From Promethearchaeota archaeon Loki_b32 (GTDB taxonomy: Archaea; Asgardarchaeota; Lokiarchaeia; Sigyniarchaeales; SOKP01): 64,000 nucleotides of DNA. Each line of letters opens with the position of its first letter. The first letter of the stretch is position 1. The position numbers were made by a program, and so were the translations under genes. The stretch lies in contig NJBH01000001.1 of NCBI GenBank assembly GCA_005223125.1, forward strand, positions 45,935-109,934, in the 5' to 3' direction. This document shows positions 1,299 through 38,054 of this stretch, piece after piece. The notes under the pieces are model-generated. The model ran no database searches. It was not told the origin of the DNA and worked only from the letters and a program-made list of their open reading frames with translations.

Positions 1299-1700
1299 TT
1301 AATCCAAAGGAAAAATGTTATTTTTAACTTCTTTTATATCTTTAAGCCCATGATCTGTAGAATAAATTACTAAATTATTTAGATCTGCACATCCACTTAT
1401 ATAAGCATCTACTAGTGATAATAATTGAGGATATTTACATTTAAAAATTCCAGATCTTATTGTTAATTGGTCATTTATATCAAGAATTTTTATTTTACTG
1501 TTTCTAAGAGAAATATTTCTAATTTGGGCGGTTTCTTTGCCTAATTTTTCACATGTCTTATAAAAATTCTCACATAAATTTAATTCTAATGTAAATGCTT
1601 TAATGGTTTCATTTTTTATTTGGTTGAAAATCTTTTTGATGGTTTGATTACCACTAAAAAATAATTCAAAAATCCCTGTATCTAAAAATATACTTTTCAT
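1299..1700 (-). CDS. vapC: PIN-domain toxin (VapC family)
   Basis: 133-aa ORF. It has the N-terminal acidic strand 'IFLDTGIF' and the C-terminal 'IYSTDHGL' typical of PIN nucleases. It starts 22 nt downstream of an AbrB-type antitoxin gene. Confidence 0.8.
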   Translation of the reverse strand: MKSIFLDTGIFELFFSGNQTIKKIFNQIKNETIKAFTLELNLCENFYKTCEKLGKETAQIRNISLRNSKIKILDINDQLTIRSGIFKCKYPQLLSLVDAYISGCADLNNLVIYSTDHGLKDIKEVKNNIFPLD

Positions 1701-1722
1701 AATTTATTTATAATTCTCATTT

Positions 1723-1983
1723 TCATTTTTTCTCAGTTTCCTTTATTCTTTCTTTTCTTCTATCTTCATGTATTTCTCGTATCATTTCATAACCTAATTC
1801 TTTAGAATCAACTCCAAATAAATCTTCTAATTCTATGATTGGAATATATAATAATCCTAGTTTATGTTCTTTAACGATGAGTTTAGACCCATCTTTTATA
1901 TTTAATTTTTTCCTTAATTTTGAAGGAATTGTAACCATTCCTCGACTTGTAACTGTTACTTCGTTTTTCATTTTTATCATCAA
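1723..1983 (-). CDS. vapB: SpoVT/AbrB-type antitoxin (VapB family)
   Basis: 'VTVTSRGMVTIPSKLRKKLNIKDGSKL' is the AbrB looped-hinge-helix motif. It forms a bicistronic pair with the PIN gene. The real start may be the internal MKNEV. Confidence 0.8.
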   Translation of the reverse strand: MMIKMKNEVTVTSRGMVTIPSKLRKKLNIKDGSKLIVKEHKLGLLYIPIIELEDLFGVDSKELGYEMIREIHEDRRKERIKETEKK

Positions 1984-2167
1984 TTAAAATTATAATTTAC
2001 TTGTATTTATAATATTTTTCATGTTTAAAAAAGTTTTTCATGAATAAAATTATAAAATAATGCAAATATAATTTTTGTATTATAAAAATCCTATGCTAAA
2101 AATTAGATTTAAGAATAAAGAGGAAAAATGGTATACAATAAAAATTACGAATGAGGGCTATCCCTAG

Positions 2168-2340
2168 TTATATAATATATTGACAAATCTGTTTATTATT
2201 ATTTAAATTTAGGTTTTTTAGCATCAATATTTCTCCAATTGAATCTGGAATTTTATCAAATTGTTTGAGCTAACGTTTAGATTCTTCAATTTAAAAAGCA
2301 GTCCTCTCGCATTTGGAAATGTTTCAATGTTATTGAAAAG
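2168..2340 (-). pseudogene. Leucine-rich-repeat gene remnant with frameshift and stops
   Basis: Minus strand reads 'NNIETFPNARGLLFKLKNLNVSSNNLIKFQIQLEKY*'. After a -1/+1 shift it reads 'IGEILMLKNLNLNNNKQICQYII*'. The DNA around 2203-2243 is nearly identical to 1015-1056. Confidence 0.55.
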
Positions 2341-2461
2341 TAAAAAAATTATGATAATCGAACCAAAAGATCTGATTCCCATTTTTGCTTCATACTTTTA
2401 ATTTTGTGACATAGAAGATATTTATAAATTTATAAATATAATTTACTTTTATATTTCTATA

Positions 2462-2695
2462 ATGACACAAAAAACTATTTCATTACCTGAAGATGTATAC
2501 AATGCGTTAAAAAAACAAAAGCGTAAAGGAGAATCCTTTTCTGAACTCATCAGCCGGTTATTACACGAAAAACATGCGAGAGAGAGAAATCTAGAAAAAC
2601 TTGCGGGTAGTTTAAAAGAGGATGATGAGTGGGATCGCATTTTGGAGGATATTTACGAAGATCGTAAAAAACCAGCACGATTCAAGGGAGAATAG
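2462..2695 (+). CDS. vapB: Antitoxin of VapB/COG1753-like type
   Basis: 'KTISLPEDVYNALKKQKRKGESFSELISRLL' fits the small archaeal antitoxin pattern (strand then helix). The stop lies just before the start of the PIN gene. Confidence 0.7.
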   Translation: MTQKTISLPEDVYNALKKQKRKGESFSELISRLLHEKHARERNLEKLAGSLKEDDEWDRILEDIYEDRKKPARFKGE

Positions 2696-2698
2696 ATA

Positions 2699-3127
2699 AT
2701 GGGAGTACTTGATTCAGACTTAATTATTGCTTTTTTAAGGGGTAGAGATAATGCGTATGAAGTTTTTCAGGATTTGAAAAAGCAACAAGAAAGCTTAAAA
2801 ACAACGGTATTTAATGTTGCAGAATTATATAAAGGATGTTACGCTATGAGGAATGTCGCAAAAGGTTTACTAAAAGTTAGAAATCTTATTGAATCACTTA
2901 ATGATATTTTAGATTTTAATGAAAAAGCAATTCAAGAGTATGCAAAAATTTCAGCAGATTTAAAGAAGAGAGGAAGTCCCATTGGGACCATGGATGAATT
3001 AATTGCTAGTATATGTCTTGCAAATAATGAAATCTTCTATACGAGAAATAAAGATCATTTTGAAAAGATAGAACAGCTTTCTATAGTAAATTGGTATGAA
3101 ATGGGTGAAAAGCTAAAAATGAAATAA
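2699..3127 (+). CDS. vapC: PIN-domain toxin (VapC family)
   Basis: Contains 'VLDSDLIIAFLRG' (first acidic strand), a conserved E/D further on and 'FYTRNKDHF' near the C-terminus. It is tightly coupled to the upstream antitoxin. Confidence 0.85.
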   Translation: MGVLDSDLIIAFLRGRDNAYEVFQDLKKQQESLKTTVFNVAELYKGCYAMRNVAKGLLKVRNLIESLNDILDFNEKAIQEYAKISADLKKRGSPIGTMDELIASICLANNEIFYTRNKDHFEKIEQLSIVNWYEMGEKLKMK

Positions 3128-3470: not shown

Positions 3471-4481
3471 TTAATTAAAAAGTGAATTATTATATCTTTG
3501 GAGAATCTCCCATTTTCCTTCTTTTCTAATTGTGGCGACTTGATGGGTTTTCATAACTTCTAAAATCTCATTAATACCACATTTTTCAGCAGAATAAGTA
3601 CATAAGACAATCATCCGATAGTTTCCTACAACGTTATTAATTTCTTCTTCATAATCAGAAAAATCTTTCCATTCCTTTTTTTCAATCCATGCAGTATTGC
3701 CTGTTACTCTGATACCATTAAAACCTTGGGATATTGCATAATTATATTTTTGAACCCATCCATCGAGAACTCTTTGGAACTTGAATTCTCCATCTTTAAA
3801 GTACCATTCTGTATAAGGAAAGATTTCTATTTGCCCTTTTTTCAAGAATTCATTATAATTTTTTATTTCAGATTTTAATTTCTTTTTAGCTTCTTTCTCA
3901 TTAAGATCTTCTGAAGTAATCCAGACACAAAACTGATTATCTTCTAACCCTTTTTTGATATAGGGTATTAGTATGTCCATGAGATCTTCTTTTTTTTGGT
4001 AAAAATAACAGATATGCGTCCCCCATGGAAAATTGTAATTTAAATTAATATCTAATTGTATCCCCTTTATATCCTTTATAGCTTGGTAATATTTAAGTAA
4101 AATTTCTTTTATTTTAAGAAATTTAGCAGCACTCTCCTCAGAAGATTTATAGAGCCCCTTATATAAATTCTTAATATTTTTAAGTTCTTCTTTAAATTCT
4201 TTTAAAATCGATTGGAAAATTTTTGGAGATATCTGTTCATTGATAATTACCACAGAAATCATAAGATCTTCATATTCCGTCCTCTCCATTTTACTTGGTA
4301 CTGTAAATTTTAAATTAGCTGTTTTAAAAGTTTCATTGTCATAAATAAAGAAATCTTTTTCATGTAAATATAGATGCTTAGGAATAGTTTTAAGGCCATT
4401 AAAGACAAAAGCTTCTGGGATTTTCAAAAAGTTTATAGGTCCTTTAAAAATATTAAAATGACTGAGAATTAATACTCTCAA
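3471..4481 (-). CDS. Two-domain protein: unknown longin/roadblock-like N-terminal module + MEDS sensory domain
   Basis: The C-terminal ~170 aa, 'GTHICYFYQKKEDLMDILIPYIKKGLEDNQFCVWI...GIRVTGNTAWIEKKEW...MIVLCTYSAEKC', fits the MEDS (DcmR-like) domain. The N-terminal ~110 aa is homologous to the N-terminus of 29008..29817. Confidence 0.65.
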   Translation of the reverse strand: MRVLILSHFNIFKGPINFLKIPEAFVFNGLKTIPKHLYLHEKDFFIYDNETFKTANLKFTVPSKMERTEYEDLMISVVIINEQISPKIFQSILKEFKEELKNIKNLYKGLYKSSEESAAKFLKIKEILLKYYQAIKDIKGIQLDINLNYNFPWGTHICYFYQKKEDLMDILIPYIKKGLEDNQFCVWITSEDLNEKEAKKKLKSEIKNYNEFLKKGQIEIFPYTEWYFKDGEFKFQRVLDGWVQKYNYAISQGFNGIRVTGNTAWIEKKEWKDFSDYEEEINNVVGNYRMIVLCTYSAEKCGINEILEVMKTHQVATIRKEGKWEILQRYNNSLFN

Positions 4482-4743: not shown

Positions 4744-5274
4744 TTAAAGGTTCAAAATAAATTCTCCAGAACATTTTTCGCGAGAATTTAGTAGGCACGT
4801 ATCGATTTCAGGCTCGATTGTATGGTTAATTCCCAGAGCATCCAACCAGCAACTAACGCGAAATATCACACCACATTCATATTGTTTGCTAACTCCAATC
4901 ATTTCCATGCCTTTGTAGGCAAAGCATCGGTTCATTTCCCAATGTATCCGATTTTTTTCAGGGAAGGTATACTCAAAGTCCATAAAATCCCCTTTTAATA
5001 TGCTAAAAGCATTACTAATAAAATCTTTTAACTGCTCAAAAGTTTTAGTTTTAACTTTCTCTAATCCCATTGCCTTTTTTATTCTTTGCATTTCAATTAC
5101 TGAAAGAGTTTTAATAGCCGCTTTATTTAGTCTATTAGCGGCATCAATACCTAATTCACGGGCACAGTTATAAAACCATGAACCATCGTGAGTCATCCAA
5201 CATTTAACAAGAAGTTCTTTTAATTGATTTTTATCAAGTTGATCAAATAACGTCATTACCATAATAATTATCAT
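4744..5274 (-). CDS. Cys-containing soluble protein, DUF6125 / ATC-hydrolase-like family (tentative)
   Basis: 176-aa ORF. 'CWMTHDGSWFYNCARELGIDAANRL...' and the C-terminal 'CFAYKGMEMIG...YECGVIFRVSCWLDALG...C...C' pattern are recalled for this family. Not searched. Confidence 0.35.
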   Translation of the reverse strand: MIIIMVMTLFDQLDKNQLKELLVKCWMTHDGSWFYNCARELGIDAANRLNKAAIKTLSVIEMQRIKKAMGLEKVKTKTFEQLKDFISNAFSILKGDFMDFEYTFPEKNRIHWEMNRCFAYKGMEMIGVSKQYECGVIFRVSCWLDALGINHTIEPEIDTCLLNSREKCSGEFILNL

Positions 5275-5550
5275 GTTGATTATATTTAAAAAAGTTAGAA
5301 GTAATCGAACTTATTCTACATTTTTTTTGGAAGAATACCCCAAATGAATAAGTCTATTGGAAATAATTATTTAAATTCCTTTATGTCATGTGAAAAAGCG
5401 GCTGAACTGTGAGATTTATAAGAGTGTATTGATTTTTTTTATGTAGGGTAGAGAGATTTAGATTAATAAATTAACTTTTTATAAAAAAGAATGTAAGTTT
5501 AGTATGTAATTCAGGAAATTTAACTTCTCAAAAGTGGGTTTTTTTATCAA

Positions 5551-6690
5551 ATGGCGGAATATGATTTTACCTTTAAAATAGTACTTGTTGGTGATGCGTC
5601 TGAAGGAAAATCATATTTTGCGAGGAGTTTTTGCTATAATATCTTTAATAGTGATACAAGAATGACTATTGGAGTAGATTTTTTTGTTAGAAGTATAAAC
5701 ATGCTTGGAAAAAATATTAAATTTCAAATATGGGACATGGGGGCCGAGGAAAGATTTAGATTTTTGGTTCCAACATATTGTAGAGGCGCCAGTGGTGGTA
5801 TAATAGTATACGATATCAAAAACGCTAATTCTTTAGCACATATTCTTGAAAATGTTCAGATAATAAGACGAGAAGCTGGAGACGTTCCAATAGTAATAAT
5901 CGGAACTAAATGTGTAGAAGATGATAAAGAACCTTCAAGAGATCAAGGAACACAAATAGATGAATCAGAAGATCGACAAAAAGTTGAAAAGATCTTTGAG
6001 AACTTAGCAGAAACTTTACTTGAAGGAGTTCCCCAAAATATAATAATAGTACCTAAGCCTTTAGAATTAATAAAAAGACCCTACATCGATAAATGGCCAG
6101 AATTCAGAGTAAATGAACACTTAGTACTTAAATTAGAAAGGAATAGAACTAATATATATGTTGGAGGGAGATTATTCAATCATTGCAAGTATTTACTATT
6201 AAATATTGATCATTATGAATTTAAAGAGTATGATGAGATTGAATCTATCGATGAAACGGCAGAAAAGCTTGGGGATTCAATGCACGGAATCGGATTCCAA
6301 AAGTATCATGTATCTCCTGAAACTGAATTTTGGGGGCATTCTTCAAATATTCAAGCTTGGTATGAAAATAAGTACGATACCCGTCTATTACACAGAAACT
6401 TAGCATTTCCCTTGTTGGAAGCTCTTATAAAAACCGGGGATCTTTTGGCAAAAAAAGTATTAAAAGAAGAGATTGCGCAGAGACTTGAAAGTGGTTATCC
6501 TTCAGTGGTTTTGTACTTGATTAAAGAAAAATATTTGAAATATTTAAGTCAAGAAGAATTGAATACAATCTTCGAAAATCCAAAATTTCAAAAGAATTTG
6601 TCAAAATGGTTTAAAGATTCCAAACTTATTCCTAGATGGTTGTCTAGAAAAATTAAATCTAAATTAAAAGATCTGAATTTGTGGAAATAG
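5551..6690 (+). CDS. Ras-superfamily small GTPase-like protein with degenerate G3/G4 motifs and a ~250-aa unknown C-terminal extension
   Basis: G1 is 'GDASEGKS' and G2 is 'RMTIGVDF'. G3 is 'WDMGAEERF' (versus WDTAGQERF) and G4 is 'GTKCVE' (versus NKxD). No SAK-type G5 is visible. The tail contains 'FWGHSSNIQAWYENKYDTRLLHRNLAFPLLEALIKTGDLLAKKVLKEEIAQRLESG'. Confidence 0.75.
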   Translation: MAEYDFTFKIVLVGDASEGKSYFARSFCYNIFNSDTRMTIGVDFFVRSINMLGKNIKFQIWDMGAEERFRFLVPTYCRGASGGIIVYDIKNANSLAHILENVQIIRREAGDVPIVIIGTKCVEDDKEPSRDQGTQIDESEDRQKVEKIFENLAETLLEGVPQNIIIVPKPLELIKRPYIDKWPEFRVNEHLVLKLERNRTNIYVGGRLFNHCKYLLLNIDHYEFKEYDEIESIDETAEKLGDSMHGIGFQKYHVSPETEFWGHSSNIQAWYENKYDTRLLHRNLAFPLLEALIKTGDLLAKKVLKEEIAQRLESGYPSVVLYLIKEKYLKYLSQEELNTIFENPKFQKNLSKWFKDSKLIPRWLSRKIKSKLKDLNLWK

Positions 6691-10354: not shown

Positions 10355-11125
10355 TCAACAAGGATATTCATGGATGTTTCTTTCTTTAAATTCTGGTAGG
10401 TCATCTGGCGGCCAACTTCTGGGAGTTTTATAATTTTTTATGAACCGATGGTCGCACATGGGAGCTCCAAATCCAAGAGTTTGAGTACGAGAGAATCCAA
10501 ATCCTAAAATATTTGCTTCAGAGAAGTCAGCTAAACAAAATAAGTGGACAAATTTTTCAGCATCTAATCTCTTAAGAGCTTTATGTAATCCACACTCATA
10601 AAAATCAAAGCCCCACTCGAAAGTTTTGCCGTCACCTTCAACATAATCCGCAACCCAATCATCTGGATATTTCCTTAATTTTGAAGCTTCGCATAGTTTT
10701 TTCACATAATCAACGTAGGCGGTCTCAAATGGATATTGAGCTGGATCTTTACCAATTTTTTCCAAATTTTTTTTTCTGATTGTATTATGTATATCACGGA
10801 ACTCATAATAAAATTCCCCTATCTCTCGAAGTGTGAATCCTTCTTTTTCTAGGACTCGAAACATTGCGAGACTAGACATTCCTCCAACAAGGAGAGTGGT
10901 GTAGGAATTTTTATTTCCGCCAATATAAGGTATTTCAGGAATTATTTTCTCATATTCTGCTTTCATTTGGGTAAAGATTTCGGAGAGTTTAGCCTCGTTG
11001 AACTTACTTTTAAACACATCCCTCGCAACTTCAAGCGCCTTAGAAAAATTTTTCATGAGTTTTGGTTTTCGTTTAATATAATAATCTTTTATAACCTTTC
11101 CAGCCATTTTTAGATTTATCACCAA
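10355..11125 (-). CDS. L-2-amino-thiazoline-4-carboxylic acid hydrolase (ATC hydrolase) family protein
   Basis: C-terminal 'FYECGLHKALKRLDAEKFVHLFCLADFSEANILGFGFSRTQTLGFGAPMCDHRF' matches the family signature as I recall it. Confidence 0.55.
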   Translation of the reverse strand: MVINLKMAGKVIKDYYIKRKPKLMKNFSKALEVARDVFKSKFNEAKLSEIFTQMKAEYEKIIPEIPYIGGNKNSYTTLLVGGMSSLAMFRVLEKEGFTLREIGEFYYEFRDIHNTIRKKNLEKIGKDPAQYPFETAYVDYVKKLCEASKLRKYPDDWVADYVEGDGKTFEWGFDFYECGLHKALKRLDAEKFVHLFCLADFSEANILGFGFSRTQTLGFGAPMCDHRFIKNYKTPRSWPPDDLPEFKERNIHEYPC

Positions 11126-13349: not shown

Positions 13350-13814
13350 CTAATCCAAGTCAATAAAGTCTTCCAAGAAAAATAAATCAATTTCAAAAGC
13401 ATTAATTATTAATGGGTTTTTTAATTCTCCTTCTTTTTTAGCAAATAATGCAGGAATTTTATTTTTTGTTGCTAATGCGATTGTAGCACAATCGGGAAGT
13501 GATATTGGATTATTACATTTTAATATACTGATATCTCTAAGGAAATTTTCTAATGAATGTATGTTAAAAAAAATTGAATCAATGAGATTATCAACCTTTT
13601 CAAAAGCTCGTTGCCTTCCAATTTTTCTACATAGTATGTATTCAGTCTCTATAATTGCTAGACTCGTTGTCATTGGTGTAATTTCATTATTTAAAATATT
13701 TTTAAAAAGATCAGACTCATCCCCAGATAAAAGAAGTTCAATAACGGCACCCCCATCAAAAACAACTTCTTTAAAAGGATACTTCATCTTTTCTCCTCTC
13801 TTGGTACAACTCAC
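13350..13814 (-). CDS. vapC: PIN-domain toxin
   Basis: Contains 'KEVVFDGGAVIELLL', '...TSLAIIETEYIL...' and a C-terminal acidic region. It overlaps the upstream RHH gene. The likely start is the internal MKYPF. Confidence 0.7.
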   Translation of the reverse strand: MSCTKRGEKMKYPFKEVVFDGGAVIELLLSGDESDLFKNILNNEITPMTTSLAIIETEYILCRKIGRQRAFEKVDNLIDSIFFNIHSLENFLRDISILKCNNPISLPDCATIALATKNKIPALFAKKEGELKNPLIINAFEIDLFFLEDFIDLD

Positions 13815-14364: not shown

Positions 14365-14757
14365 ATGTTAAATACTATGGTGGAAGAAAAAAATATCACA
14401 GAGAAATTAGAAACCGTTTTAAAAAGATTATTAGCAAGTAATCGAGACATTACAATTGTTATAGTCACTACAATGGAGGGGCTTCCAATTCTTTCAATAT
14501 TACCCCGAGGATATGATGAAACTAGAATTTCTGCTATGGTTGCTACATTACTCTCTTTATCCGAAAGAACTGTCGTAGATATGGAAATAGGGGTATTTAA
14601 ACAGATATTTATCAAAGGAGTTGATGGTTATTTATTAATTTTTGATGCTGAACCGGCGGTATTGGCAGTCTCAACTACAGAAAAAGCGAAATTGGGGCTA
14701 GTTTTCCTTGAATGTGAGCGTGCTTCGCATAAAATATCAAAAATTTTAAAAAAATAG
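14365..14757 (+). CDS. Roadblock/LC7 (MglB-like) domain protein
   Basis: 'LETVLKRLLASNRDITIVIVTTMEGLPILS...ETRISAMVATLLSLSERTVVDMEIGVFKQIFIKGVDGYLLIFDAEPAVLAVSTTEKAKLGLV' is a canonical Roadblock pattern. Confidence 0.8.
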   Translation: MLNTMVEEKNITEKLETVLKRLLASNRDITIVIVTTMEGLPILSILPRGYDETRISAMVATLLSLSERTVVDMEIGVFKQIFIKGVDGYLLIFDAEPAVLAVSTTEKAKLGLVFLECERASHKISKILKK

Positions 14758-14848: not shown

Positions 14849-15265
14849 TTAAGATGATTCAAAAAATTGGATTTCTTTTGTTCTTTCAATAATTTCATTA
14901 TCGAAAGTGGCTAATGGGAAATTTAATTCAAATGCTAATTGAACTATGATTGCATCCATTCCCTTTAATTTAAAATTGAGTCCATGATTTTGTGCTTTAA
15001 GCATTCTCTTTTCATTCAGTTCGTAAATCTTAATTTTTTTTTCTTTAACCCAATTTTGGATTATTTCTTCACTTTCCTTTGCTTCTTCTATTCCCACTCT
15101 CCTTGCAATGGCACAACATATTTCAATAGGGTTTATCATAGATACATGAAAATTTAATTCACCATTTTCCATTCTTTCAATAATACTAATGCTCTTCTGG
15201 TGAAATTTATCATTTTTTATTAAAGATGCAATAAAAACATTAGAATCTACGATTATATCTTTCAT
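14849..15265 (-). CDS. vapC: PIN-domain toxin (VapC family)
   Basis: Contains 'IIVDSNVFIASL' and the C-terminal 'PLATFDNEI'. There is a 4-nt overlap with the upstream AbrB gene. Confidence 0.85.
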   Translation of the reverse strand: MKDIIVDSNVFIASLIKNDKFHQKSISIIERMENGELNFHVSMINPIEICCAIARRVGIEEAKESEEIIQNWVKEKKIKIYELNEKRMLKAQNHGLNFKLKGMDAIIVQLAFELNFPLATFDNEIIERTKEIQFFESS

Positions 15266-17647: not shown

Positions 17648-18355
17648 GTGATTATGAGTAATGATGGTTTACCACAGACACGTAAAAAGGAGCAACAAAT
17701 TCCGCGTTTACAAATAGCTTTGGATTTTGAAAGATTAGATGATGCCTTGGCGATGGCAAAAGAAGTAGCTCCTTTTATAGATATTTTGGAAGCTGGAACT
17801 CCTTTAATAAAATCTGAGGGTATGCGAGCCATTCAAGCATTAAAGAAGGCACACCCGGATAAGTTAGTTTGTGCAGATTTAAAAACTGCAGATGCTGGAT
17901 ATCTTGAAGTACGAATGGCTGCCCAAGCGAAAGCTGATATTGTCACAATACTTGCAGATGCTTATGATATTACAATCAAGGAGGCTTTACGTGCAGCACA
18001 TGACTTTCACATAGAAATCATGGCAGATCTTATCATGTCTCGATCACCGACTATCAGATTAGCAGGCCTCATAGACCTTAATTATAAAGACACAAAATTA
18101 CATTATGCCCTTGTGCATAGCGGCTTAGATCGTCAAGCATCACGACGAGCTCCATTGTTAGAGTTAGAATTAGTAGCACGGTTACGAGACCATCCACGAC
18201 TAGCAATAGCAGGTGGGATAAGAGTCGACGATATTCCTAAATTATTAGCTTTTCCACTGGATATCATTATTGTAGGGGGAGGAATTATTCGTGCGAAAAA
18301 TGCATACAACGCAGCAGAGGACATTCGAAAAGCTATTTATAAGTATTCTATATGA
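17648..18355 (+). CDS. 3-hexulose-6-phosphate synthase / KGPDC family (OMP-decarboxylase suprafamily)
   Basis: Contains 'RLQIALDFERLDDALAMAKEVAPFIDILEAGTPLIKSEGMRAIQALKKAHPDKLVCADLKTADAG' and '...AIAGGIRVDDI...IIIVGGGI'. It is markedly GC-richer than its neighbours. Confidence 0.7.
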   Translation: MIMSNDGLPQTRKKEQQIPRLQIALDFERLDDALAMAKEVAPFIDILEAGTPLIKSEGMRAIQALKKAHPDKLVCADLKTADAGYLEVRMAAQAKADIVTILADAYDITIKEALRAAHDFHIEIMADLIMSRSPTIRLAGLIDLNYKDTKLHYALVHSGLDRQASRRAPLLELELVARLRDHPRLAIAGGIRVDDIPKLLAFPLDIIIVGGGIIRAKNAYNAAEDIRKAIYKYSI

Positions 18356-29007: not shown

Positions 29008-29817
29008 GTGTGGATCAAAACGAACATCATATTATCATATTTTCATACTAGAATAGGGACAGACATATTCTATACGTTTCCAGGAACTCAAGTAGATAAC
29101 GAAATATCAGATAGATTATATGATGTTATGACTCAGCAGAAAGATGAAGAATTTTTCTCACATGCCGTTGGAAATTTAAAGCTATTAAATTATTACTTTC
29201 AAATTCGTTCAGATTGGGCACGTGGTAGTAGAGAGATGCTAATGCTCTCGATAATGTTTAAGCAACAAATTTCTCCAGAGATTGAAAGCAGTATCTCATT
29301 ATTATGTAAAAAATTTGGAGAAAGGATGCGATCAAATGAAGATATTTTTACTGGGTTCCATTTAAAGGAATTAAACAATTACAATGAAGATAATAAAGAG
29401 CGTATAAGAACAAGCGAAGGATTAATCAAGGAATGGGTAAAGGATTTATATTGGGAAATTTTAGAAGAAACTAGAAAAAAATCAGAAGAAGAGAAAATAA
29501 CTGTGTTATTAAACGACCGATATATATTTGAATCTTTAGAAAAAATGTCAGGAGAATTGAAAAATATCAATAGAGAGATAAATTCCAGTAAGGATTCCTT
29601 GAAAACAAATCTAAATATTAGTAATTCAATTTCAAGTTTAAATAAAATTATTGATGATTTATATGGTGGCTACATAGAAAAAATGACAGAGCTTGACATT
29701 GAGAATGAAAATGGCTTATTTTCCACTGAAGAAGATGAAGATCCTGACATTAAAAAGAGTAAAAAAGAAAAGCTACTTCAACTTTTAGAAGATGAGATCT
29801 CGGGAAAAAAAGAATAG
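29008..29817 (+). CDS. Unknown protein: longin/roadblock-like N-terminal module (paralogue of 3471..4481 N-terminus) + acidic coiled-coil tail
   Basis: 'IILSYFHTRIGTDIFYTFP...FFSHAVGNLKLLNYYFQI...REMLMLSIMFKQQISPEIESSISLLCKKF' aligns with the MEDS protein N-terminus. The C-terminus is E/K/D-rich. Confidence 0.55.
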   Translation: MWIKTNIILSYFHTRIGTDIFYTFPGTQVDNEISDRLYDVMTQQKDEEFFSHAVGNLKLLNYYFQIRSDWARGSREMLMLSIMFKQQISPEIESSISLLCKKFGERMRSNEDIFTGFHLKELNNYNEDNKERIRTSEGLIKEWVKDLYWEILEETRKKSEEEKITVLLNDRYIFESLEKMSGELKNINREINSSKDSLKTNLNISNSISSLNKIIDDLYGGYIEKMTELDIENENGLFSTEEDEDPDIKKSKKEKLLQLLEDEISGKKE

Positions 29818-36325: not shown

Positions 36326-36724
36326 ATGGAGTCTAAAACGTCTGAAGATAAATGGAAAAAGAAACTAACAAAAGAACAATACCGTGTTCTCCGTAAAAAG
36401 GGAACTGAACCCGCATTTACAGGAAAATATTGGGATTATCATGAAAAAGGTATATACAAATGTGCTGGTTGTGGTACACATTTATTCTCTTCGGAGAAAA
36501 AATTTGATTCTGGATCTGGGTGGCCTAGTTTTGATCAACCCATTGATGAGGTTAATGTAGAAGAAAAATTAGATACAAATTATGGAATGAAAAGAACTGA
36601 AGTCCTTTGTAACAAATGCGGAGGCCATTTGGGACATCTTTTTAATGATGGCCCAAAAACAACAGGGTGTCGATATTGTATTAATTCGATTTCCTTAGAT
36701 TTTCAGCCTGATGCTAAGCATTAA
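36326..36724 (+). CDS. msrB: Peptide methionine-R-sulfoxide reductase
   Basis: Contains '[26 protein letters not shown]', '[21 protein letters not shown]' and 'RYCINS'. Confidence 0.95.
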
Positions 36725-38054
36725 TTTTAGTAATATCATGAATTATGAGTTGAATTAAAATTTCATTATGTAATCTCACAAGACTGCTTGAGATTTTAAC
36801 CGATATTAAACTTCCATCTTTATTATAACATTGAATTTCAATAGGTTCTAATTTTTGACCTTTTGCAAGTTTCTCGTATGCATCTTCTAGTTTAGAAAGT
36901 GATTTCGTAGGGAAAGCAATAAGCTCGAGCAGATTTTTTCCAATAAACTCATACCTTTCATATTTAAATAACTTTACAGTCGCAGAATTGCATTCTATTA
37001 TACTGCCTTTAAAGTTCAATAAAATAACAGAATATGGCGAGGTTTCAAGTAAATGATAAAACTTTTCCTTTAATTCTTTTATTTTTAGTATATCTTCTTG
37101 AATTCTTTCTTTTAGGTCGTTACTTAAATCTTCGCATTTGACTTTCGAGGCTAATAATTTTTCTTCTAATTTTTTACGTTCAGTGATATTTCTAATAACA
37201 CCGATAAATTTAATAGCTCCTTGCTCTTTATAGACACCTCCTCTTGTAGCCACGGGAATATAGTAGCCATCTTTATGGCATGCTCTATACTCAGCATAAA
37301 TAATTTCTTCTTTTATAATTGCTTCTTTCATTTTTGTTCTTACCAAAGGTAAATCTTCTGGATGTATAAAATCAAATGCATTTAATCCAATTAGCTCTTT
37401 AGAATGATACCCAAGAATACCATATGATTGAGGGGATAAAAAAGTAAAAATTCCATCTGAATTGATTTCAACAGTAACATCTAATATATTATTAATTACT
37501 TTTTCAAAAATCTCATAGGATTTCTTTATTTCATCAATGTATTCTTTTTTCCTACCAAGATCACTCTGTTTATCTATTGGTTTGAAAATTTTATAATGAA
37601 TTTTGAAATTTTTTAATAGTTCTTCTACAACACTAAGTTTTGCTAAATCATTAGGAGAAATCTCAATTAATGGAGTAGGTTCAGGAATTTCAATTATGGT
37701 GAAAAGGATTGCTAATCTATCATTATAATAAAAAATTTTCGAAAAGACTTCAATCCATTTGAATTCACCTGATCTTAATAATATTCGACATTTATACCTT
37801 GTTGTGTTGTTTTTCTTCTCTTTTAACTTACTCTCAATTTGTTTTTTAACTTTAGATAAATCATCGGGATGGATTACTCTCATCCAGAAATCTTTTTCTT
37901 GAATTTCGTCAAAAGAATATCCGAAGAGTTTCAAAATTGTGTTATTCACATATATAATTCTATCATCTTGAAGTACTCCGATTCCCAATAACGAATTTTC
38001 AATAAACTCTTTCTCAGAAAAAATATTTTTACATATATCTTGATAATTAATCAT
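36714..38054 (-). CDS. Multi-PAS-domain protein without recognisable output domain
   Basis: There are three PAS-like units: '[21 protein letters not shown]', '[21 protein letters not shown]...[13 protein letters not shown]' and '[23 protein letters not shown]'. No kinase H-box or HTH is seen. Its 3' end overlaps msrB by 11 nt. Confidence 0.75.

Follow-up and report, generated by a model that had tools for sequence, protein, structure and literature searches.

A lokiarchaeial protein joining an NPRL2/folliculin-type longin domain to a MEDS domain: a candidate sensor-coupled regulator of small GTPases

A gene in the lokiarchaeial metagenome-assembled genome (MAG) of Promethearchaeota archaeon Loki_b32 encodes a protein in which a longin domain of the NPRL2/folliculin type is joined to a MEDS domain. 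The gene lies in a stretch of 64,000 nucleotides (contig NJBH01000001.1, positions 45,935 to 109,934; G+C 30%), which we analysed as a whole and refer to as the window. This gene, gene A, occupies positions 3471..4481 on the minus strand (336 amino acids, TTG start, stop codon included), and its product, protein A, is 100% identical to NCBI protein P0001 of the same archaeon. In eukaryotes, the longin domains of NPRL2, folliculin (FLCN) and SMCR8 form the catalytic half of longin-type GTPase-activating protein (GAP) complexes for Rag and Arf GTPases. In bacteria and archaea, MEDS is found in sensor histidine kinases and regulators. On balance, we favor the interpretation that protein A is a sensor-coupled regulator of small GTPases, probably a GAP of the NPRL2/FLCN/SMCR8 type in which R67 is the catalytic residue and MEDS provides input or coupling.

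Domain structure of the longin-MEDS protein

The longin domain covers residues 1-136 (4074..4481, minus strand), as indicated by AlphaFold2 (AF2) modeling, Foldseek and hhalign. An AF2 model of residues 1-150, computed from aligned members of the families of A and of its paralog in the window, gene B, has a predicted local distance difference test score (pLDDT) of 81 and a predicted template modeling score (pTM) of 0.79. It contains the elements β1 (2-10), β2 (14-21), α1 (28-38), β3 (44-48), β4 (52-62), β5 (70-80), α2 (86-101) and α3 (115-136). The longin order of elements was recovered again in an independent AF2 run on the full-length protein, with pLDDT above 90 across most of the module, and both models reproduce the strand-strand-helix-strand-strand-strand-helix pattern that an earlier reading of the sequence alone had proposed. 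The predicted fold is a five-stranded antiparallel sheet lacking the N-terminal helix of a roadblock domain, which is the arrangement expected of a longin. Foldseek comparison of the model with PDB structures placed NPRL2/Npr2 of GATOR1/SEAC at ranks 1-7 and 9 (E 3e-6 to 4e-4, template modeling (TM) scores 0.55-0.59) and another chain of the FLCN-FNIP2-Rag-Ragulator complex, probably FNIP2, at rank 8. The longins of folliculin, NPRL3, Sec22b, DENND10, Lst4 and VAMP7 follow at lower ranks, and about 20 longin structures are found within the top 34 matches. The predicted fold and the NPRL2-type matches support the longin assignment made in the sequence-only reading, which had named structure prediction and a Foldseek search as its check.

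Two sequence features mark the module as related to a particular class of longins. The first is the GP motif in the β1-β2 hairpin, G14-P15 (4437..4442, minus strand), and the second is R67 (4281..4283, minus strand) in the β4-β5 loop, a candidate arginine finger; both positions were checked by translation. Given the longin strand order 2-1-5-4-3, rather than any distance measured on the model, the two turns should be neighbors at one end of the sheet. We searched 177,635 distinct PDB sequences with a profile of 63 diverse members of the module family, and NPRL2 ranked first with a sub-threshold E-value of 0.034, the match falling on the β1-GP-β2 segment; a phmmer search of PDB sequences with the module gave only noise. 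The same family was then aligned by hhalign to the N-terminal sequences of human NPRL2, folliculin and SMCR8, which were confirmed to be identical to PDB chains 6ces_N, 6ulg_L and 6lt0_B. The probability is 84% for NPRL2 (E 8e-6), 17.8% for SMCR8 (E 1.4e-3) and 1% for folliculin, which carries a long insertion (E 0.054). Each of the three alignments places the family GP on the GP of the human protein (G15-P16 in folliculin, G68-P69 in SMCR8) and the family arginine on R78 of NPRL2, R147 of SMCR8 and R164 of folliculin, which are the published arginine fingers of these proteins (PMC12290439). According to the same study, the GP motif is present in FLCN, NPRL2, SMCR8 and C9orf72 and missing from the longins of FNIP2, NPRL3, adaptins, TRAPP and DENND proteins. 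The 'hF..h.GP' opening, which had been noticed as reminiscent of longins, corresponds to the published GP motif of the GTPase-regulator class. The likeness to DENN, folliculin and SMCR8 proposed at the same time holds insofar as the module is a longin of the small-GTPase-regulator kind, but its nearest relative is NPRL2 of GATOR1 and not uDENN proper. Both in structure and in sequence, the closest neighbor is the catalytic subunit NPRL2 and not the longins of SNAREs, TRAPP or adaptins.

The longin domain is followed by a linker (residues 137-154; 4020..4073, minus strand), partly disordered in the model with pLDDT below 50 at residues 140-148, and by the MEDS domain (residues 155-314; 3540..4019, minus strand). 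The presence of MEDS, already recognized from the sequence, is supported by a Pfam match to PF14417 at E 4.5e-46 (157 bits against a cut-off of 29.8) that spans positions 1-161 of the 161-position profile. The full-length AF2 model has a pLDDT of 84.4 and a pTM of 0.59; taken with the low scores in the linker, this indicates two well-folded domains whose mutual orientation is undefined in the model. The best Foldseek matches of the MEDS half are archaeal FlaH and KaiC CI domains (E ~2e-5), and a motif scan of the whole protein found no Walker A motif (G....GK[ST]). We therefore regard MEDS in protein A as a non-ATPase derivative of the KaiC/FlaH/RecA-like fold. Its closest sequence relatives are PAS/histidine-kinase and regulator proteins from bacteria and archaea, which are 45-59% identical in the MEDS part only. 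The few publications on MEDS regard it as a predicted sensor domain.

The second copy of the module is encoded by gene B (29008..29817, plus strand; 269 amino acids), in which the longin module (about residues 1-130) precedes a C-terminal half that is helical and conserved. BLASTP aligns residues 4-111 of A with residues 7-118 of B at 29% identity (E 8e-8), and phmmer searches with each module against all 155 open reading frames of the window recovered the other module at E ~1e-6 in both directions and no third paralog. The proposal that the two N-termini form a paralogous domain family is thus borne out, and the description of the alignment as position-for-position is correct except for three small gaps amounting to 6 gap positions. 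In gene B, G17-T18 replaces GP and the arginine loop reads W-A-R72-G, with R72 at 29221..29223 (translation checked). The B family comprises at least 159 orthologous clusters, of which the best 120 are 55-96% identical; it is broader than the longin-MEDS group and conserved over its whole length. Its members are unnamed or labeled 'hypothetical protein', and every named source is an Asgard MAG. The C-terminal ~140 residues of B (29398..29817, plus strand) are strongly conserved among the orthologs, for example RKKSEEEKITLLLNDRYIFESLEKMS, and Pfam found only a weak coiled-coil-like DUF16 match in this half.

A family of longin modules in Asgard archaea

We searched 1.84 billion cluster representatives, without a word index, using a profile built from the modules of A and B. 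This yielded 489 clusters (50% identity) at E ≤1e-3, 258 of them at E ≤1e-10, and all members with a source name come from Asgard MAGs (Lokiarchaeota, Helarchaeota and Promethearchaeota). Conservation was counted in 122 near-complete representatives, using the numbering of A. G14 is kept in 121 of the 122 and P15 in 120, followed by F9 (118), P22 (117), R67 (115) and E71 (110). The family consensus can be written as LSYF...GP..F..P ... NY.FEI.S.WARG..E.LM.S ... YKAFY.

These numbers bear on the suggestion that the resemblance of A to B and to longins reflects chance or composition in an AT-rich genome (30% G+C), the N-terminus being no defined domain at all. In its favor, the module has no curated Pfam or NCBIfam match, and a word-index homology search with the N-terminal 144 residues alone returned nothing, missing even protein A itself. 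Against it stand the pairwise E-value of A and B, the 258 clusters recovered by exhaustive HMMER search at the stricter threshold, motifs kept over 122 diverse sequences and the confident AF2 models of the module. We consider this explanation refuted.

Domain fusions, counted by Pfam in 148 family representatives, connect the module to small GTPases. A small-GTPase domain is fused to the module in 26/148 (Arf 26, Ras 25 and Gtr1_RagA 13, the three models overlapping on one GTPase domain), with a P-loop that begins about 30 residues past the module, and in the five fused members examined Arf is the best-scoring GTPase family. The arginine and the proline are both kept in all 23 of 23 P-loop-bearing members. 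PAS domains occur in 17/148 and HATPase_c in 6/148; the remaining fused domains include zinc ribbons, TPR, TBP and V4R. Architectures range from module-Arf (P0291, P0300) to module-Arf-PAS-GAF (P0315) and module-Arf-PAS-HATPase_c (P0333), and in P0375 the module precedes about a dozen PAS repeats. The modules nearest to that of A, at 38-41% identity, include those of module-Arf-PAS proteins. Separately, six relatives (P0280, P0374, P0384, P0387, P0359 and P0244) carry either two longin modules in tandem or a roadblock domain N-terminal to the module. Such arrangements may correspond, in a single chain, to the longin-longin heterodimers found in eukaryotic GAP complexes.

The frequent fusion to PAS, GAF and HATPase_c would also be expected if the module were itself a sensor of small molecules or peptides, a profilin- or PAS-like α/β sandwich, making protein A a prokaryotic-style regulator with two sensors and no link to GTPases. 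This idea agrees with the weak similarity that Foldseek detected to LOV/PAS histidine kinases (E 0.02-0.03, probability 0.44-0.89) and with the lack of a conserved GTPase neighbor of A. However, the histidine-kinase matches have TM scores of only 0.30-0.46 and rank below the approximately 20 longin matches, the strand order is that of longins, and the module lies directly N-terminal to a small-GTPase domain in the 26 fused relatives described above. We therefore regard a pure sensor as improbable.

Proposed function and points against it

Under the interpretation that protein A is a sensor-coupled GTPase regulator, its longin domain would dimerize with itself or with a paralog such as B, and the dimer would dock on a small GTPase, with Arf- or Rag-like GTPases as the most plausible targets. 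The presence of B in the same window and of two tandem modules in some relatives is circumstantial support for a longin-longin pairing. R67 would promote GTP hydrolysis by the docked GTPase, for which the GTPase fusions in 26/148 relatives give indirect support, and MEDS would couple the activity of the longin domain to a ligand or a partner protein. A more specific version, in which protein A is a ligand-gated GAP whose MEDS domain senses a metabolite or partner and switches the arginine-finger longin on or off toward an Arf- or Rag-like GTPase, is in our view speculative and rather unlikely as it stands. Were it true, protein A would be a one-polypeptide archaeal counterpart of nutrient-sensing GATOR1 and folliculin, and would provide direct evidence that wiring from sensor to longin GAP to GTPase is older than eukaryotes.

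The main rival interpretation holds that the longin of A is a non-catalytic platform for dimerization or GTPase docking (a guanine nucleotide exchange factor (GEF), scaffold or adaptor), as in TRAPP, Mon1-Ccz1, DENN and SNARE longins, and that it would bring MEDS to a GTPase or membrane without using an arginine finger. The TM scores are compatible with this, since the non-GAP longins Sec22b (0.53), Lst4 (0.57) and DENND10 (0.49) come near the values for NPRL2, and the non-catalytic partners NPRL3 and probably FNIP2 are among the Foldseek matches. What speaks for a GAP instead is that the GP motif, confined to FLCN, NPRL2, SMCR8 and C9orf72 among the longins compared (PMC12290439), is nearly invariant in this family together with the arginine, and that the sequence profile selects NPRL2 alone among PDB longins. 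We consider the platform a possibility to be taken seriously, if a doubtful one.

Several further observations weigh against a GAP, and some of them lend support to the platform. Most longins serve as GEF platforms (PMC10933270) or as adaptors rather than as GAPs, and GAP activity of Asgard longins has been raised only as a possibility, in a 2025 paper (PMC12290439). The arginine loop of A reads M-E-R-T, a departure from the W/L-A-R-G of the family and of FLCN/SMCR8. Moreover, the family arginine co-varies with the nearly invariant glutamate at +4 (E71), which eukaryotic GAP longins lack; this suggests that the arginine could be structural, possibly forming a salt bridge. The E-values of the module against the PDB from sequence only are sub-threshold, the Pfam NPR2 and folliculin N-terminal models do not match it at E up to 10, and no NCBIfam model matches it. 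The missing match to the curated NPR2 and folliculin models indicates a relation at the superfamily level. Apart from that, Pfam searches with the isolated modules gave sub-threshold matches to Lin-15B and DUF4460, and a Folliculin_C match (E 0.051, 13.6 bits against a cut-off of 27) was discarded as spurious, as it concerns the wrong part of folliculin. The Pfam and NCBIfam searches did not place the module in any described prokaryotic family of other function, a placement that the sequence-only reading had named as one that would refute it.

The genomic context of A adds to these objections. Gene order is not conserved across seven orthologous loci, and a small-GTPase gene lies within ~6 kb of A in only 3/7 (the window, L001 and L005), in varying position and orientation, in genomes that are rich in small-GTPase genes. 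The one GTPase-like gene near A in the window (5551..6690, plus strand) encodes a Rab-like protein of 379 amino acids (Pfam Ras E 2.4e-28; best PDB relatives Rab8, Rab10 and Rab1). Its P-loop is intact (GDASEGKS), but DMGAE replaces the switch-II DxxGQ (G3) and TKCV replaces NKxD (G4), and it may be a pseudo-GTPase or a GTPase with altered nucleotide specificity. A 200-residue C-terminal extension contains no confident domain. Among the GTPase domains fused to the module it is close to that of one member alone (P0335, E 5e-20), the others matching at E 1e-5 or weaker. An operon or partnership between A and this gene was considered and dropped, given the unconserved neighborhood in the seven loci and the degenerate G3 and G4 motifs.

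Distribution and genomic surroundings

Full-length longin-MEDS proteins form one tight group of 26 clusters (90% identity) that are 72-100% identical to A, and a search of GTDB species representatives with protein A found only close orthologs, in seven Promethearchaeota/Promethearchaeia species. The fusion to MEDS thus appears, by identity of at least 72%, to be confined to a narrow clade of Promethearchaeia. These proteins are labeled only 'MEDS domain-containing protein' in databases. Some of the orthologs are annotated with 318-321 amino acids, seemingly without β1 and the GP motif. In the two that we checked, both of 318 amino acids (L002 and L003, ~5947..6000), a real loss was rejected in favor of a start codon miscalled at an internal methionine, because in-frame upstream sequence encodes LRVLILSHFN..GP. 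Both proteins probably begin 18 codons further upstream, at a codon of the TTG/CTG type.

In L001, a roadblock gene (5170..5556) lies next to the A ortholog in divergent orientation, and the four loci other than the window, L001 and L005 have neither a small-GTPase nor a roadblock gene nearby. Gene order around B is likewise not conserved. The unconserved neighborhoods of both genes agree with the published comment that GTPases of Asgard archaea and the putative regulators of these GTPases are as a rule not organized in operons (PMC10933270). Within the window, a Roadblock/LC7 protein of 130 amino acids from the GTPase-regulator superfamily (14365..14757, plus strand; Pfam E 9.4e-11) is encoded ~10 kb from A.

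Other neighbors can be described as follows. DUF6125/ATC_hydrolase-like and OMP-decarboxylase-family genes recur near A orthologs (in the window at 4744..5274 and 10355..11125 on the minus strand and 17648..18355 on the plus strand; L006 2273..4699; L002 4208..5128). In the window and in L006, the ATC_hydrolase genes are directly upstream of A and share its strand, and OMPdecase is upstream of A in L002 and L006 and 13 kb off in the window, a loose synteny. Just downstream of A, 1299..3127 contains two toxin-antitoxin-like pairs, judged by reading of the sequence to consist of PIN-like and small antitoxin-like genes, and Pfam finds further PIN-domain genes at 13350..13814 and 14849..15265. Finally, a 446-residue protein composed of PAS domains only (at least three) is encoded at 36714..38054 on the minus strand and is another stand-alone sensor protein in the window.

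Relation to known systems

GATOR1, folliculin-FNIP and C9orf72-SMCR8 control nutrient signaling and lysosome biology in eukaryotes, and their origin has been traced to Asgard archaea. Protein A is small, at 336 amino acids, with two well-folded domains, the GP motif, the arginine and a recognizable sensor, and it is therefore a convenient candidate for testing both GAP activity and sensor input in Asgard longins. The sequence-only reading did not recognize its architecture, but Liu et al. (bioRxiv 10.1101/2020.10.19.343400, later Nature 2021) had already described asCOGs with an Asgard 'NPRL2-like longin domain' and their fusions to two-component signaling domains; both the kind of protein and the functional idea are thus known. 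A list of protein classes enriched in Ca. Lokiarchaeum ossiferum also includes the NPRL2-like longins (PMC9834061), and longin-GTPase fusions have been reported in MK-D1 by Tran et al. (PMC10933270). The present analysis adds MEDS as the specific partner, places in this class two proteins that databases label 'hypothetical' and 'MEDS domain-containing', and provides the quantitative survey of motifs and fusions. The survey, with its 489 clusters, near-invariant GP and arginine and 26/148 GTPase fusions, gives quantitative support to the published idea and adds no new one.

The proteins of Liu et al. share with A the origin in Lokiarchaeia/Promethearchaeia, a longin nearest to NPRL2 and the joining of a eukaryote-like longin to prokaryotic sensor or signaling domains. 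The partner in A is different, MEDS having 0 occurrences in the text of that paper, figures aside. The Asgard 'FLCN/SMCR8-type' longins (PMC12290439, Traffic 2025) resemble the family of A in having GP at the β1-β2 turn and, in the loop beside it, an arginine. That set consists of one reference heimdallarchaeial protein and 14 other Asgard longins, compared with the 489 clusters reported here, and its arginine loop reads A-R-G, unlike the loop of A.

Human NPRL2 is the best match of protein A in both structure and sequence, with R78 on R67 and a similar β1-GP-β2-P segment (one compared segment: LILSHFNIFKGPINFLKIPEAF). The identity is only ~13-19%, however, and NPRL2 has a C-terminal domain of its own where A has MEDS. 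NPRL2 works at the lysosome, where it acts on Rag GTPases as part of DEPDC5-NPRL2-NPRL3, whereas no DEPDC5 or NPRL3 context is known for protein A. The family consensus 'S.WARG' resembles 'DSLARG' of folliculin (R164) and 'DLEARG' of SMCR8 (R147), and GP is common to all of them. SMCR8-C9orf72 is an Arf GAP; the Asgard module, for its part, is fused to Arf-family domains in the five members examined. FLCN and SMCR8 differ from protein A in their long insertions and C-terminal DENN domains, which A lacks, and their hhalign support is weak. On the sensory side, protein A resembles DcmR, EtnR2 and RsbA-like MEDS proteins in matching the Pfam MEDS model from end to end, but in those proteins MEDS is combined with PAS, with HisKA/HATPase_c or with sigma-54 activator or HTH outputs, whereas in protein A it is combined with a longin domain only.

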